Source of the DNA: a bacterium
GTDB lineage: Bacteria; Hinthialibacterota; Hinthialibacteria; Hinthialibacterales; Hinthialibacteraceae
NCBI GenBank assembly: GCA_963662285.2
Contig: CAXXMV010000008.1
Coordinates: 1,568,001-1,632,000, forward strand
Direction: 5' to 3'
DNA: 64,000 nucleotides
Shown here: positions 481 to 64,000 of the stretch, piece after piece
Numbering within the stretch: position 1 is the first letter of the stretch
Layout: each line of letters opens with the position of its first letter
The notes under the pieces: model-generated
What the model was told of the DNA's origin: nothing
The model's database searches: none
The model's input: only the letters and a program-made list of their open reading frames with translations
Translations under genes and position numbers: made by a program

Positions 481-648
481 GGCTTCAGGTTCCTTGTCAT
501 TTAGATCATGGAGATTGCTATTACCATATGATAGTAACATAATTCAGTTCAGGAGATAATTGATGTGATCATCATATTTTAATTATTGAAACGCAAAAAG
601 AGTTCTCCTTAAGCGAGCCTGTGCTGAATACGCAGGAAGGGATTTAAC

Positions 649-2131
649 ATGAAAACAGGTTATTCTTTATTATTGGCGACTGGATTGATTTTTGTCTTTG
701 CTTTACTCCCATTGGCCGGGGAGGAAATCAATCCAGACTCTCGAATCAATGTGAGCGGCGTGTTTCCCCATTTGGCTATGGTGGCTGATCATACGCCTCG
801 CACTGAAGCGGGAACCGGCGCCATGGTTCCCTGGGCGAACCGATTGTGGATTATTACCTATGTAGCGCACATGAAAGGCACCGGCTCTGGAACCGGGTTA
901 TATGAAATAGACGAAAACCTGAATATGCACAAGCGGCCGGAAAGCGTGGTTGGAACCTACGCCAACCGCATGATTCACACCGAAAGCCAGCAGTTGATTA
1001 TCGGTCCCCATATCATTGATACCGAAGGCAATGTGCACACGATAGACGGAGTGAAAGACCACCGCTTGACCGTGACCATGCGGCATCTGACCGATCCGGC
1101 GCATAAGGTTTATTTTCTGGCTATGGAAGGACAACTGTTTGAGGTCGATGTTCATACCCTGCAAACCACGCTGCTCTTCAATCTGCTGGATGAATTAAAG
1201 GTTCCCAAAGACGCTAAACCCCATTTCAAAGGTGGTTTCACGGCGCATGGGCGCGTATTCGTGGCTAATAATACATACGATGAACGGGATTATAACAAAT
1301 CATGGAGCGCGGGACGTCTGGGCGCGTGGGATGGAAAGACGTGGACTGTGATTGATGATAATCCCTATACCGAAGTTTGGTGCCCCACGATCATTTGGTA
1401 ATGCTGTTTTCGCCACTGGCTGGGATAACGCTTCGGTTATACTCAAAGTGCTTACGCATGGAAAATGGTCTACCTATCGTTTACCCAAAGCCAGCCATAC
1501 CTTCGATCAGACCAGTTGCACAGAATGGATGCGTATCCGCGAAGTGGAAACCGAACGGGCCTTGATGGATTGTCATGGCATGTTTTACGAAGTTCCTTAC
1601 CATGCCTATGATGGGAAAATTTGGGGCATTCGACCTATATCGACGCATCTGCGCGTGATCCCGGATTTCTGCTCGTGGCGCGGCATGTTGGTGTTAGGCG
1701 GAAACCAGTCTACTCCTATGTCATTCGGAACGGATAGAAACTTAGTCGCCGGGCAACCGCAAGCCGGTTTATGGTTTGGCAAGACGGACGACTTATGGAG
1801 TTTTGGTAAACCTTCTGGCAGTGGAGGCGTTTGGCGTGACCTCTTCAGTGAAAAAGGGCGAACATTCCGATCCATTCCTGATGCGGGGATTTGATAAAAA
1901 AGTTGTGCATTTTAAGGCTGACTCAGATCAAGTTCCAGCCTTAGATAGAGCTCCAATTTTTACTATTGAAGTAGACTTTATGGGTAATGGAACCTGGGTT
2001 CCCTAATAAAACTATTCCAGTTTTCGACGGTTATGCTTTTCACGCTTTCCCTGATGGTTTCAGCGCCGAATGGGTGCGCATAACCGCAAGGCAGGATTGC
2101 GTGGCTACCGTCTAATTTCATGTATTCGTAA
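649..2131 (+). CDS. Conserved secreted hypothetical protein (about 490 aa) broken by four +1 frameshifts
   Basis: ORFs 649-1401, 1352-1894 and 1776-2006 join, and continue as YKTIPVFDGYAFHAFPDGFSAEWVRITARQDCVATVYFMYS* if single bases near 1381, 1840, 2005 and 2115 are removed. Signal peptide; SGVFPHLA...GAMVPWANRLWIITY motif. Confidence 0.7.
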
Positions 2132-2220
2132 ACAGGGCTTTGGAATAATAAATACTGAACATACTTTGAAGAACAGTTCTCACCAGTATAATAAGCGAAA
2201 GCAAAGAAAGGGATTTATAC

Positions 2221-3688
2221 ATGAAACGTTTAGCATCTTTCACATTATTAATATTTTTAGTTGTTTTTTTCCGTTATGGATAGCCGCGCTGATATGAGTT
2301 TAGCGTATGTTGATTTATTTGACGGTAAAAGCCTGGATGGTTGGAAAGCCAACGAGAACCCCGGTTCTTTCATTGTACGCGACGGAATGCTGATCTGCGA
2401 AGGCCCCCGCTCCCATCTGTTTTATGATGGGGATGTTGAGGGCGCGGAATTTAAGAATTTTGAGTTGGTTGCTGAAGTGATGGCTACCCCCGGAGCTAAT
2501 TCGGGCATCTATTTTCATACCCGGTACCAGGAAGAAGGATGGCCTACCAAAGGTTATGAAGTGCAGATCAACAACACTCATCGCGGCGAGGGAGAATACC
2601 GCGAACTGAAAAAGACCGGCAGCCTCTATTCGGTGCGCAATGTTTATAAGTCAATCGTAAAAGATAATGAGTGGTTCACGCTGCGCATCAGCGTTATCGG
2701 CGATAAAATTACCATCTTAGTAAATGATGTTATAGTCATGTATTACACTGAACCCAAGGTTCCGGTTCGTTCAAAAGAAAAAACTGAACGAATACTCTCC
2801 AGCGGAACTTTCGCCATCCAATGTCATGATCCAAACAGCAAGGTTTATTTCAAAAGCATCAAAGTGGCGCCCATACCTGATAGCAAAAACAACAAAACAT
2901 ATGATTTCAGTTCCATAATTGTTGATGACCGCTATAAACAAATCCAGCAACTACAGGAAGGCAACTTTCCCCTGGTTGATTTCCACGTTCATCTCAAGGG
3001 TGGTCTTACGATTGAAGACGCCATTTTTAATTCATTTAAAGTCGGCATCAATTACGGCGTTGCGCCGAATTGCGGAGTAGGCTTCCCTATTACTGATGAT
3101 GCCGGGATAGACCAGTTCATCGAAAGCATGAAAGGCAAGCCGGTGTTTTTGGGGATGCAGGCTGAAGGCCGCGAGTGGGTCAATATGTTTTCCAAGGAAG
3201 CCATAGCCAAGTTCGACTACGTCTTCAGCGACTCGCTGACATTCACCGACGATAAGGGACGCCGCATGAGATTATGGATGAAAGATGAAGTCTTTGTTGA
3301 TGACAAACAGGACTTCATGGATATGTACGTGCGGAGCATCGAGTCTGTCATCAGCAATGAGCCAATCGATATTTTCGTTAATCCCACTTTCCTGCCGGAA
3401 TGCATTGCTGAAGAATATGACGAACTGTGGACCGAAGAGCGGATGATGAAAATAATCGATGCGGCGGTCAAACATAACGTGGCCATCGAAATCAACGCCC
3501 GCTATAAAATCCCCAGCGTCAAATTCATAAAACTGGCCAAAAAAGCGGGCTGTAAGTTTGCTATGGGAACCAACAACATGACTCCCGAACTGGGGCGGTT
3601 GGAATACAGCCTGGATATGGTCAAAGAATGCGGTCTGACCTGGGATGATATGTTCATGCCGAAATCAGCAGGGTGGATAGAGAAATAG
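2221..3688 (+). CDS. DUF1080 (3-keto-disaccharide hydrolase-like) domain fused to a PHP-like domain
   Basis: LFDGKSLDGW, ANSGIYFH, GYEVQI, GSLY, IQCHD motifs, then DFHVHLKGG and AIEINARY. True start is likely ATG 2221 (signal peptide) with a +1 shift in the T7 run near 2265. Confidence 0.8.
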
Positions 3689-61091: not shown

Positions 61092-61445
61092 TCAATTTTT
61101 AACGAGTTGGCTCTGGCGTGGGTGTATGCAACAGGAAATTTCCGCATGTTCTTTTTGTTTAGGATGAACCGAAATCTCCACATCCTGGTCGAGAGCGGTT
61201 AGGAATTCCATCAAGCGGCCTAGCGAAAAGTTGCCTGAACGGTTTCTCATCAGGGCGGAAACGTGAGGCTGTTTAATTCCAAGAACCTTGCCTGCTTCAA
61301 TTTGCGTAAGGCTGCGTTCTTTTATGATGTTATGAATTTGCAGCGTCAAATTTGCTTTAATCAACTCCTGCTCTGGATTAGCAAAACCCAAGTCAGCAAA
61401 GATATTACCGTTGCTTTCTTCAATTTGTACTGCTTCTTTCGTCAT
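61092..61445 (-). CDS. XRE/HigA-like antitoxin (HTH_37)
   Basis: SNGNIFADLG, LTQIEAGKVLGIKQPHVSAL, FSLGRLMEFL motifs. Confidence 0.88.
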   Translation of the reverse strand: MTKEAVQIEESNGNIFADLGFANPEQELIKANLTLQIHNIIKERSLTQIEAGKVLGIKQPHVSALMRNRSGNFSLGRLMEFLTALDQDVEISVHPKQKEHAEISCCIHPRQSQLVKN

Positions 61446-61786: not shown

Positions 61787-62641
61787 TTGACTGTTAAGAA
61801 AATACTTTATAAACTTTGGAAATCAGTGGATGATTTATTCGGATACAAAGAGTTGATAACGGGTGGGGATATGACAGATATATTCAATAGTTGGAGAAAA
61901 AGGATAGAGGGTGATGGCCCAATTGAAAAACATATATTACTTTTAAAATTGAAAGATATTTTAGAAAACTCACCTGATTTTGGTGTAAGATCAAATTTCG
62001 ATTCTTCTTCACCTCAAAGGCAATGGTTATCACAAGTTAAGGCTCTTTTATCTCGTTTAGGATTCGAAAACAAAATGAAATTTGAATCATCTTTTAATTC
62101 TCTTCCACATTCATGGAAATATGCGATTATTCGAATACAAGGGCAAGTCTTAGATGCTATTGAAGAAATTAAACTTGATTTGGAGTTAGATGATCGTAGC
62201 GAAATCGGTAGTGCTTATGCTCCAGGTGATGTCTATAGGTTTTATGCTGATCTCAAAGAAATTATTAATTCTGCTAAAAGCCAGATCATGATAGTTGACC
62301 CATATTTCGATGGGGTTGCTTTTAAAGATTATCTTTCAACTATCAATTGTGATATTAATATTCAAATTCTTGCTAATAGATATTCAAAGGATATTAATTC
62401 TTATGTAAGCAAGCATCAGGATCAATATAGTACAGACATATATATTAGAAAAAGCAAAGAACTACATGATCGTATTATATTTATTGATGATGATATTGCA
62501 TGGATAATTGGCGGCTCAATCAAAGATGCAGGTAAAAAAGCCACATACCTTATCCCTTTGCAGCCATCATTATCTGTTAAGAAAAAAGAAATATATGCTG
62601 AAATTTGGCAGAGAGCACAACCTGTTGAAGCAGATGCCTAA
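61787..62641 (+). CDS. Hypothetical protein with C-terminal PLD-like (HDR variant) nuclease domain
   Basis: IMIVDPYF...LHDRIIFIDD..WIIGGSIKDAGKK; AT-rich; start may be ATG 61871. Confidence 0.65.
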   Translation: MTVKKILYKLWKSVDDLFGYKELITGGDMTDIFNSWRKRIEGDGPIEKHILLLKLKDILENSPDFGVRSNFDSSSPQRQWLSQVKALLSRLGFENKMKFESSFNSLPHSWKYAIIRIQGQVLDAIEEIKLDLELDDRSEIGSAYAPGDVYRFYADLKEIINSAKSQIMIVDPYFDGVAFKDYLSTINCDINIQILANRYSKDINSYVSKHQDQYSTDIYIRKSKELHDRIIFIDDDIAWIIGGSIKDAGKKATYLIPLQPSLSVKKKEIYAEIWQRAQPVEADA

Positions 62642-62775
62642 TAAAACAATAATTATGATAAGCGGATCGAGTGCAAGGCGAAGCCAGCCCTTGAAGAATG
62701 CATAAAATAGAAAGTTATAATATCATAGTCTGACCGTTTGTTGGTCTTGCCCTTGATGACCATGCGCCTATTGGA

Positions 62776-63150
62776 GTGAGTAAAGTGGATACCTTTAAGC
62801 AATTTCTTTTAAAACAAGAAAAAATTGAGAAAATTCTTCTTTACGAGCATGAAATTTATAAAAGTATTCCAGGAACTAAAAAATCCTATAGACAAGATTC
62901 TGAAAACACCAATACCATGATCCAAAAACATTCACATATCTATGCAAAACCTAAAGGAGGCGGAAAAGAATTGTACGCAGTAAATATTGATGGTAGTGGT
63001 CATGATGGTTCTAGTGGTATAGAAATCCCTTTTGTACAAGCTGATTATTTGAGATCAATTGGTTACGACATCAACTCCAGCAATATTCTAGAAAGTATGA
63101 TTTTAGATAGTCTTAACAAAGAGCAGTTTTCACTCGTTATTTTTGTATAA
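62776..63150 (+). CDS. Small hypothetical protein, DUF6367-like or toxin-like (HxH..NxDGSGHD)
   Basis: QKHSHIY..YAVNIDGSGHDG motif; family assignment from memory only. Confidence 0.5.
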   Translation: MSKVDTFKQFLLKQEKIEKILLYEHEIYKSIPGTKKSYRQDSENTNTMIQKHSHIYAKPKGGGKELYAVNIDGSGHDGSSGIEIPFVQADYLRSIGYDINSSNILESMILDSLNKEQFSLVIFV

Positions 63151-63266
63151 TAAGAGAACACTATTACGTCGGGTATTAGGATAAACTGTTGAGTTGTGAA
63201 AGTGTTTTTTCGGAAGTTTAATCCAAGGAAATAATGAAAAGCAGAGATAAATAAAGACGGTGATTT

Positions 63267-63382
63267 TGCCCGAGGCGGGACTCGAACCCGTACAGACTTA
63301 GTCTACTAGTTTCCTAAATACTCCTTATCATGAAAGAAATATTTAGGAAAACTAGCGTGTCTACCAATTCCACCACTCGGGC
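63267..63382 (-). tRNA. tRNA-Leu-like RNA with a 33-nt insertion extending the anticodon arm
   Basis: GCCCGAG/CTCGGGC-A acceptor stem, GTGGAATTGGTAGACAC D arm, CTAGT/ACTAG stem enclosing 40 nt, AGAC-TAA-GTCT variable arm, GGGTTCGAGTCCC T arm. Confidence 0.85.
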
Positions 63383-63630
63383 TAATTTTCCGAATAATAT
63401 TATATAAGGCAATATCCATACCAAAACATAATGCGCTGATTTTTTGTGGTTTGCGATTCTATTTACTATCACCTAAGGATTTTTTGGCACACAAACAAGG
63501 AAAGGATTGTGCCAAAATGGATATCATTAAAAGACGTATAAAAAAGTGTGGGTGACAATGCATCCTACGCAACATAGGACAATATTAAGATGAGCGTTCT
63601 GAATCGCCTTGATACCGAACTCCGCCACAA

Positions 63631-64000
63631 TCAGTATCCCATATTCAAATGTTGCGCTTGTTCAGCCAGTTGATCGAGGGCTTTTCTGCGTTCCGCCTGG
63701 TTTTGTTCTTTATATTGCTGCACATCCTTGAACAGAATCCGTCGGTGGGTTCCAACTTTGCGGAAAGGGATTGCTCCTTCATCCAACAGCCCGACCAGGA
63801 AAGGCCGGGATACATTCAGTAACTCCGCCGCCTGTTGGGTCGTAAGTTCCGTCTGCGTGGGGATCATTGTTACTGTGTTGCCCTTCGCCATTTCTTTAAG
63901 AACATTTACTAAAAGATGTATGGCCGAGGCGGGTAGAATAATATCTTCGCTTGTTGCGCCATCTTCTCTAATCTGGATGGGTAAGTCTTTGCTTGTTTCC
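63631..64000 (-). CDS. Excisionase-family HTH (HTH_17) antitoxin-type protein; 5' end beyond window
   Basis: ELTTQQAAELLNVSRPFLVGLLDEGAIPFRKVGTHRRI; frame is open upstream to the window edge. Confidence 0.85.
   Translation of the reverse strand, partial: ETSKDLPIQIREDGATSEDIILPASAIHLLVNVLKEMAKGNTVTMIPTQTELTTQQAAELLNVSRPFLVGLLDEGAIPFRKVGTHRRILFKDVQQYKEQNQAERRKALDQLAEQAQHLNMGY

Follow-up and report, generated by a model that had tools for sequence, protein, structure and literature searches.

The tRNA-Other of Bacillus cereus and the inactive allo-tRNAs are tRNA-shaped RNAs which, in those portions of the reports that were available to us, are thought to be non-translational, and some of them are encoded beside toxin-antitoxin or transposon genes (PMC5389517; PMC7609411). 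Group I introns are described, in the accessible part of a preprint, as interrupting the anticodon loops of bacterial tRNAs, tRNA-Leu included (bioRxiv 10.1101/2020.01.27.920355). Here we describe a tRNA-like gene of 116 nt, named X, which has the body of a tRNA-Leu and an anticodon loop that is taken up into a long hairpin. It lies at positions 63267-63382, on the minus strand and with its 5' end at 63382, of a 64,000-nt stretch of DNA (the window) from a bacterium of the family Hinthialibacteraceae, phylum Hinthialibacterota (GenBank assembly GCA_963662285.2, contig CAXXMV010000008.1, positions 1,568,001 to 1,632,000 of the forward strand). The assembly amounts to 7.29 Mb in 8 contigs, is 92.5% complete and has a GC content of 0.44.

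As far as the partly available literature goes, the nearest precedents are tRNA-Other, which does not decode, and those inactive allo-tRNAs that are encoded close to toxin-antitoxin genes. Both keep a 7-nt anticodon loop, in the portions of the descriptions available, whereas X has none. In the same sources the allo-tRNAs have an 8/4 or 9/3 acceptor/T branch, while that of X is 7/5, which places X outside the allo-tRNAs. Within the same bounds, a literature search, PMC10690425 included, produced no description of a bacterial tRNA with a long hairpin that masks its anticodon loop or takes its place, and supplementary lists of irregular tRNAs may hold some.

The gene and its fold are real, and the anticodon of X is inaccessible, hence it does not read codons. 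The reading that we favour, tentatively and on sequence grounds, is that X is an acquired, probably chargeable, non-decoding mimic of a Leu-type tRNA which would act off the ribosome.

The gene X and its fold

In a search with Rfam, X matched the tRNA model RF00005 over model positions 1-71 with a score of 40.1 bits (cut-off 29; E 1.7e-6), and the alignment placed a 36-nt insertion inside the anticodon loop. It is the lowest-scoring of the 44 matches to this model in the genome, the remaining 43 being ordinary tRNAs which are also found by ARAGORN; the latter program made no call at X, whether it was run on the window or on the genome as a whole. The gene and its parts, together with the box upstream of it, are as follows.

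63267-63382, minus strand: whole gene X, matched by the Rfam tRNA model
63376-63382 with 63268-63274, minus strand: acceptor stem (RNA positions 1-7/109-115), 7 of 7 pairs formed
63357-63373, minus strand: D arm of Leu type with G18 G19 (RNA 10-26), matching the genome's own Leu-CAG and the Leu tRNAs of relatives
63351-63355 with 63306-63310, minus strand: anticodon stem CUAGU/ACUAG (RNA 28-32/73-77), from the Rfam alignment and the fold
63311-63350, minus strand: 40-nt insert (RNA 33-72), from the fold and the inverted repeat, consisting of a bulged U (63350), a 5' arm (63334-63349), a 7-nt loop (63327-63333) and a 3' arm (63311-63326)
63311-63318, minus strand: Leu(UAG)-type loop sequence UUUAGGA and the A after it, masked through complete pairing to the beginning of the 5' arm
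63292-63305, minus strand: long variable arm (RNA 78-91), with a 4-bp stem and a 3-nt loop
63275-63291, minus strand: T arm (RNA 92-108), its first pair an A-C mismatch in the Rfam alignment
63267, minus strand: discriminator A (A73; RNA 116), from the Rfam alignment and the fold
63399-63404, minus strand: TATAAT, a -10-like box at -22 to -17 from the mature 5' end of X

A preliminary description of this DNA, made from its letters and open reading frames, had proposed a Leu-type body carrying 40 nt within the anticodon stem, which fold into 16 extra bp with a bulged U and a 7-nt loop, and an A-C mismatch in the T stem; Rfam and RNAfold confirmed each of these elements. In the RNAfold structure the 5-bp anticodon stem continues, past one bulged U, into 16 pairs, two of them G-U, and ends in the 7-nt loop, and the only unpaired residues among the 40 nt between the stem strands are the bulged U and the tip loop. 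An inverted-repeat search recovered the same hairpin arms independently of RNAfold. The minimum free energy of X is -49.9 kcal/mol, compared with -28.5 +/- 3.4 kcal/mol for 200 shuffled sequences (z -6.27), and none of the 200 was as stable.

The insert ends in the 8 nt UUUAGGAA, of which the first 7 are the anticodon loop of a Leu(UAG)-type tRNA; for comparison, the resident loops are CUUAGGA in Leu-UAG and UUCAGGA in Leu-CAG. The first four pairs of the anticodon stem are identical to those of both of these resident tRNAs. Because the Leu(UAG)-type loop persists, paired with the inserted 5' strand, the anticodon has been masked by pairing rather than deleted.

Leu identity elements comprise A73, a class II variable arm, and a D loop and elbow of Leu type, and X carries this set. 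To judge from the sequence, the features that are read by LeuRS, RNase P, RNase Z and the CCA-adding enzyme, namely the acceptor, A73, the elbow, the D and T loops and the long variable arm, are intact. The TATAAT that the preliminary description had seen just upstream is present at the position listed above. Upstream of the genome's 43 tRNA genes two motifs are enriched, CTTGAC(A) in 10 and TATAAT in 9 of them.

A perfect Leu(UAG)-type loop, complete with U33 and G37, would also be expected if the segment 5' of the masked loop were a mini-intron of some unknown kind, removal of which would yield a tRNA-Leu(UAG) with either a 6-bp anticodon stem or an 8-nt loop. Excision of 31 nt would indeed leave the loop UUUAGGA on a 6-bp stem, between complementary strands, and the pairing with the anticodon resembles that of eukaryal and archaeal pre-tRNA introns. 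We nevertheless regard such an intron as very improbable. The segment lies 5' of the anticodon and not at 37/38, on a 6-bp stem with standard connectors the anticodon would be out of place, and the genome already has a Leu-UAG tRNA. The preliminary description had stated that no 33-nt excision restores a Leu anticodon and that no bulge-helix-bulge is evident; both statements stand, since all eight possible excisions, when re-read, gave the same four outcomes (AGG, UGG, UCG or UCC) and the fold is a continuous helix with a single 1-nt bulge. In the region 62000-64000 Rfam matched a tRNA alone and no intron family at E up to 1. Finally, in our own reading of the X-like genes from other lineages that are treated below, none has a 7-nt remainder which restores a Leu anticodon, the remnants lacking either U33 (locus L031) or a restorable Leu anticodon (L040 and L065).

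Uniqueness and origin

No second copy of the insert was found in the 7.3-Mb genome, where all other blastn-short matches are of 16 nt or less and have chance E-values. The terminal 8-10-mers of the insert occur as an inverted pair around the inner sequence only at X in the whole genome, and the sole other match to the 8-mer pair is 190 nt of unrelated sequence. Being single-copy and sharing its terminal repeats with nothing else in the genome, the insert is not a dispersed repeat of the REP (repetitive extragenic palindromic) or MITE (miniature inverted-repeat transposable element) kind. A Logan contig of 8505 nt, which is an independent assembly of the source run, covers 62700-63900 with 0 differences. 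The X stretch is contained in two runs from one sample of one study, probably the source; no RNA run was listed with it, a result that has no bearing on expression. As the contig was probably built from reads of the source sample, it rules out an artefact of the assembler, though not one of the library. A dispersed repeat and an assembly artefact had been named in the preliminary description as findings that would speak against the gene, and neither was encountered.

The same results bear on explanations at the level of the DNA, according to which the hairpin is a REP- or MITE-like palindrome, a scar left by recombination where a tRNA gene served for attachment, or an artefact of assembly. tRNA genes do serve as integration sites, X borders an acquired islet, and GC-rich palindromes occur within Leu tRNA genes in some metagenome-assembled genomes (MAGs). 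However, apart from the lack of a second insert copy or of paired terminal 8-10-mers elsewhere and the identity of the Logan contig, albeit from the same reads, direct repeats of the tRNA 3' end are absent from the borders of the islet, and no integrase-sized open reading frame (ORF) was seen by eye, without a Pfam scan, among the ORFs listed for 46.5-64 kb and in the next 12 kb. The hairpin is, moreover, more stable on the tRNA strand, by 7.9 kcal/mol. We therefore consider an origin of this kind to be highly unlikely.

X retains 32 of the 34 columns that are invariant across 35 normal Leu tRNAs from the family relatives and its own genome. Its 5' half scores 27/32 against the resident Leu-CAG, whereas its 3' half scores 11-21/44 against the four resident Leu tRNAs and at most 26 against those of any relative; given this poor match of the 3' half, recent duplication of a resident gene does not account for X.

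The possibility that X represents a missing tRNA-Leu(CAA) was also considered, and was rejected, X being no nearer to the CAA type than to the CAG type. The flanks of the tRNA-Leu(CAA) genes in relatives map to scattered places in this genome and are not syntenic among genera. As to the tRNA complement itself, no tRNA-Leu(CAA) was found in this assembly, and 18 of 19 family relatives carry a conserved one, with mutual identities of 88-100%. The 43 tRNAs likewise include no tRNA-Ser(GGA) and no tRNA-Arg(ACG), and at the stated completeness all three absences may be gaps. ARAGORN reports in addition a 'tRNA-???' with a 2-base anticodon at C6:52554-52639, which has no Rfam tRNA match and is probably a false call.

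The syntenic site and the low-GC islet

The phylum is represented by 35 species genomes in the collection, with none other from the genus of X. A DNA search of 41 relatives matched X over its 5' half only, and the 19 loci with such matches that were fetched hold ordinary tRNAs, of which 16 are Leu-CAG, 2 Leu-UAG and 1 Leu-CAA. A pattern search, requiring a Leu D arm and a T arm separated by 53-83 nt, gave matches in 2 of 20 genomes of the family, one being X and the other a false match across two tRNAs.

On the upstream side, the gene order orf233-MazG-reductase is kept in 16 of 19 relative loci, the remaining three being cut by contig ends, and the conserved synteny stops exactly at the islet. 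The syntenic site carries no tRNA-Leu in any of the 18 relative loci scanned, one of which has a tRNA-Phe, and genes from the other side of X are absent from the syntenic loci of the relatives. X therefore does not go back to an ancestral tRNA gene located here, and the normal tRNA-Leu which the preliminary description had envisaged for the relatives, as an observation that would count against it, is not there.

The islet extends over about 60.6-63.6 kb, where the GC content is about 0.32-0.39, compared with 0.45-0.50 just before it and 0.44 genome-wide. Its genes, and those adjoining X, are as follows.

61092-61445, minus strand: HigA-like HTH_37 antitoxin-type gene (Pfam PF13744, 1.5e-23)
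61787-62641, plus strand: PLD-like protein, candidate single-gene defence system (PADLOC PDC-S05, 5.1e-21; weak match to Pfam PLDc_2)
62776-63150, plus strand: orf124, convergent with X and possibly DUF6367-like (Atlas lead, score 0.96)
63602-63646, minus strand: what may be left of the C-terminal portion of a PIN toxin gene (weak match; 15 aa, 47% identity)
63631-64000, minus strand, running to 64092 beyond the window: HTH_17/excisionase-family antitoxin-like gene of 153 aa (PF12728, 2.6e-12; TIGR01764)

The PLD-like protein has no relative in the viral contigs, and orf124 has no confident Pfam match, ATPgrasp_YheCD falling below the cut-off (E 0.0024; 17.6 vs 26.8 bits). The HTH_17 gene lies upstream of X on the same strand. 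Its protein has a sole relative in the metagenomes, an antitoxin at locus L424 with 44% identity, directly followed by an RSP_2648-type PIN toxin gene; no tRNA-like RNA was detected at L424 at E up to 1. A tblastn search with the L424 PIN protein yielded the possible remnant, weakly, with an E of 0.25 against a 3-kb target, and the genome has no RSP_2648-type PIN homologue elsewhere. On this weak match, the HTH_17 gene and the remnant look like a toxin-antitoxin pair of which the toxin may have been largely deleted. Further from X, a 44-nt direct repeat, 91% identical and with a short hairpin of its own (56160-56203/56622-56665), flanks a 101-aa minus-strand ORF.

The same architecture in other lineages

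When one genome per species was scanned with the D arm and T arm pattern given above, at least 116 loci were obtained, all counts being lower bounds, and at least 64 of them have 6 or 7 acceptor pairs. Once five of these with N and 13 with internal duplications, which are probably misassemblies, had been dropped, there were, among the matches listed, 45 distinct clean sequences, of which 14 combine a canonical anticodon arm with an over-long variable arm and 31 have no canonical anticodon arm. We defined the X-like form by an intact Leu body, A73 and an anticodon stem that continues into at least 10 further pairs. X itself has 16 further pairs, and the automatic rule also selected L031, L117, L040, L065 and L072. 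With one locus assigned by eye, the X-like hairpin occurs, among the matches listed, in five lineages besides that of X.

L031 and L117: two copies in one Dehalococcoidia genome (G042), by the automatic rule
L040: an alphaproteobacterium, by the automatic rule
L065: Ignavibacteriaceae, by the automatic rule
L072, with a homologue in G086: Chlorobaculum (Chlorobiaceae), L072 by the automatic rule
L140: Chlorobiaceae, assigned by eye

The sequence TAG followed by G/C-A-A stands directly before the 3' stem strand in X, in L072 and its G086 homologue, and in L031 and L117, which points to a Leu(UAG) origin for these genes. The bodies of X and L031 are near-identical, but ordinary Leu tRNAs are also alike; L040 and L065 have an unusual acceptor stem in common.

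The genes next to them belong to accessory or defence functions. A GajB-like helicase and a protein of the PDC-S32/AbiJ_NTD4 kind are encoded upstream of the two G042 copies; L065 lies 13 nt from the end of a DUF4411 (PIN-like) gene with an M78-peptidase partner; an NYN-LOTUS gene lies 206 nt upstream of the G086 copy; and L140 adjoins HsdR. A gene of the PIN-like superfamily touches 3 of the 7 loci, if the decayed PIN module of X is included, a proportion for which there is no background rate for comparison. Among other features of these loci, L040 is divergently adjacent, at 129 nt, to a bona fide leuS (989 bits; L040:135-3149), and L031:115-676 and L117:136-691 constitute a duplicated two-gene unit, made up of the RNA and a 140-aa ORF of no known family.

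The scan also brought up tRNA genes of other forms. Very similar GC-rich palindromes are present inside Leu tRNA genes in MAGs of different phyla (L033, L038, L134 and L135); they sit in different arms (T, D and anticodon stem) and are a REP-like element or else of technical origin. Gammaproteobacterial class II tRNAs of 98-101 nt with a Leu-type D arm (L039, L054, L073, L107, L113, L114 and L118) have a very long variable arm and non-Leu loops (GGA, GGC, CGC, GCC) and may relate to allo-tRNA-like tRNAs. In a Saccharibacteria MAG a Leu-type tRNA-like sequence (L042:1886-1993) falls within the span of a 23S rRNA match (560-3532).

Possible selection on the RNA

The preliminary description had noted that the two non-Watson-Crick pairs of the hairpin are U-G only on the tRNA sense strand and had seen in this a hint of selection. 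The pairs are as described; taken by itself, X, with 2 G-U and 0 A-C pairs, is not significant (chance 0.25). Over the hairpin extensions of all six lineages, with the outer five pairs excluded, the tRNA strand shows 11 G-U pairs and no 1x1 A-C mismatch (binomial p 0.0005), and the antisense fold of the same six extensions contains 3 G-U pairs (p 0.03). The sense fold is the more stable in 6 of 6, by 4.5-7.9 kcal/mol, with X at the upper end of this range. A neutrally decaying DNA palindrome should show no such strand bias.

Comparison of homologous genes from other lineages is consistent with constraint on the RNA. G041 and G086 are 86% identical over the RNA, with flanks that cannot be aligned, and the two differ by C:G to U:A double changes, which are compensatory, in both the acceptor stem and the anticodon stem; one position of the G086 hairpin is an A-C mismatch. 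The two copies in G042, in which CCA is encoded, are identical at 113 of 114 positions. About 45 nt upstream are also conserved there, and the ORF 19 nt downstream has many substitutions, the region overall being 86% identical. Gene conversion could also explain the conservation of the G042 RNA. Compensatory change or conservation of this sort was found for the G041/G086 pair and the two G042 copies only, and not for X.

Viral look-alikes

Viral contigs of IMG/VR yielded at least 115 loci with the Leu pattern. Among the matches listed, the acceptor stem is paired in 106 of 116 instances, and a canonical anticodon arm is missing from 81 of 89 distinct sequences. Most of these viral forms have complex middles and a shared acceptor stem, and not a simple hairpin. 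A control pattern for class I bodies gave at least 120 loci in the viral contigs, with a paired acceptor stem in 109 of the 120 listed, and they include giant-virus tRNA-Tyr genes with introns at the canonical position, several conserved families of inserts and some plain long hairpins. After this control scan the idea that the phenomenon is specific to Leu was dropped.

Some of the phage genes form sets of their own. In many of the Leu-type tRNA-like genes within L189-L303 (for example, L189, L190, L214 and L231) one acceptor stem and A73 are present, with complex middles of 45-75 nt in place of the anticodon arm, and Rfam calls them only tRNA. Covarying long-range pairing was discerned by eye in L084, L197 and L206. 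Phage class II tRNAs with a Leu-type D arm and a GUU anticodon (L209, L216, L232, L236, L256, L259 and L283) have a canonical loop and a 10-bp variable arm.

Functional RNA or pseudogene

The main rival to an off-ribosome RNA is that X is a decaying pseudogene, that is, a Leu(UAG/CAG)-type tRNA gene, either islet-borne or an old paralogue, which was killed by the insertion of 31-33 nt that pair with its loop and which persists as a neutral relic. We judge this to be a serious possibility, albeit one that we are inclined to doubt. A series of observations weighs against a functional RNA, and several of them are what a relic would lead one to expect. X is a singleton at every taxonomic level searched. 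The pattern search found it alone among the 35 genomes of the phylum, metagenome contigs gave 0 matches to a pattern for a stem-flanked insert, and as a singleton X is without covariation or conservation evidence of its own. The look-alikes show much the same distribution, being present in 1 of 121 genomes searched for L065, 1 of 121 for L031, 1 of 122 for L140 and 1 of 201 for L040, with only L072 found in two (2 of 81). As singletons among species representatives, masked forms are evidently very rare among all Leu tRNA genes, and rare mutational accidents would also give this pattern. In X itself, one of the two departures from the invariant columns is the G-to-A change that creates the A-C mismatch in the T stem. 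No -35 box is found upstream of X at 16-18 nt spacing, where the enriched CTTGACA is absent, nor any full promoter on the tRNA strand. The islet is decaying if the weak match to a toxin remnant is real, a Leu-UAG tRNA is already resident in the genome, and, as the palindromes at L033, L038, L134 and L135 illustrate, other palindromes do insert into Leu tRNA genes.

With regard to the look-alikes, their grouping was partly made by eye and the scans provide lower bounds and no frequencies. The hairpins of different lineages have no common sequence, and an all-against-all BLAST of the neighbouring proteins revealed no family common to more than 3 of 29 look-alike loci. Moreover, tRNA-shaped genes that depart from the standard anticodon arm are common in mobile DNA, and, since class I bodies in viruses have inserts too, insert-bearing tRNA-like genes are not Leu-specific. 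That the design serves charging by a synthetase blind to the anticodon is accordingly a weaker inference.

A neutral relic, on the other hand, would hardly be expected to have so intact a body while not being a recent copy of a resident Leu tRNA, to show both non-Watson-Crick hairpin pairs as G-U on the sense strand, with a bias of 11 to 0 over the six lineages, or to have counterparts elsewhere which occur as homologous pairs with compensatory changes and are better conserved than their flanks. An insert that has neither another copy nor a terminal-repeat family in the genome also sits uneasily with it. The sporadic recurrence of the form in defence islands of unrelated bacteria likewise suggests an off-ribosome RNA rather than plain junk. 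Thus, among the three options which the preliminary description had left side by side, the chargeable non-decoding RNA has gained indirectly, through look-alikes with constraint at the RNA level, the mini-intron has lost ground and the pseudogene remains a rival.

Proposed mechanism and role

On the reading of X as an off-ribosome mimic, the ancestor would have been a CUN-reading tRNA-Leu of the UAG/CAG type that was acquired horizontally. A segment of 31-33 nt, now placed just 5' of the anticodon loop, would have come to pair with that loop, and the anticodon arm would thereby have been extended to some 21 bp of helix, with a 7-nt loop of unrelated sequence at its tip. The RNA may be transcribed from its own -10 element, processed at its ends, provided with CCA and probably leucylated. 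It would not enter the ribosomal A site productively and would, presumably, exert its action elsewhere.

What that action might be is more speculative. VapC-type PIN toxins are known anticodon-loop nucleases, and this behaviour, together with the genomic context, suggests a role as a decoy or antitoxin. X might serve as a decoy or competitor for tRNA-binding nucleases of toxin-antitoxin or defence systems, such as PIN-like anticodon-loop cutters, to which it would present a tRNA body without a cleavable loop; this is the specific role that we prefer, although taken on its own we hold it to be rather improbable. A broader proposal, also unlikely although somewhat less so, is that X belongs to an undescribed class of mobile tRNA-Leu mimics borne on defence islands, in which the anticodon is sequestered in a long helix, and which would be processed and leucylated. 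In the conflict between phages and their hosts, anticodon-loop nucleases (PIN-like, HEPN) would then meet them as decoys that cannot be cleaved, as RNA antitoxins or as sensors.

If X and its look-alikes are made and charged, they would represent tRNA mimics with a full cloverleaf that have been taken off the ribosome by masking of the anticodon. Their adjacency to PIN-like, NYN, AbiJ-like and other defence genes provides the testable idea that they bait or blunt tRNA-cutting nucleases. Standard tRNA finders skip such genes, and censuses of tRNAs and counts of pseudogenes consequently miss them. Should X be only a dead gene, it would still exemplify an unusual mode of tRNA inactivation, by an insertion that pairs with the anticodon loop.

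Comparison with known systems

With the canonical bacterial tRNA-Leu, a class II tRNA reading CUN codons through UAG or CAG, X shares the acceptor, A73, the D arm with G18 G19, the long variable arm, the T arm and the sequence UUUAGGA. It differs in lacking a 7-nt anticodon loop, the loop sequence being paired with the inserted strand in an arm of about 21 bp.

The tRNA-like domain of tmRNA is a tRNA mimic without an anticodon which is charged by a synthetase that ignores the anticodon. X, in contrast, has a full cloverleaf including the D arm and has neither a tag reading frame nor pseudoknots; it does not qualify as a tmRNA, and the resident tmRNA was located elsewhere by ARAGORN (C1:499970-500323). 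YrlA, a bacterial Y-RNA-like RNA, combines a tRNA-shaped module with a long helix, but there both ends of the RNA are situated within the long helix and a loop closes off the 'acceptor', whereas X has the normal tRNA topology and no non-tRNA Rfam match at E up to 1.

In archaea and eukaryotes pre-tRNA introns pair with the anticodon and lengthen the anticodon helix, much as the insert of X does. The segment in X, however, lies 5' of the anticodon, without a bulge-helix-bulge and without a canonical product, and we know of no tRNA splicing endonuclease in bacteria. Group I introns in bacterial tRNAs are ribozymes of more than about 200 nt, whereas the insert of X measures just 40 nt and its surroundings (62000-64000) match no intron family.

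The intervening sequences of 23S rRNA, finally, are sporadic, lineage-specific elements in which a terminal loop is swapped for a long hairpin that RNase III removes without re-ligation. X resembles them in its long, sporadic and lineage-specific hairpin and differs in that they are located in rRNA, whereas X carries its hairpin on the body of a tRNA-Leu.

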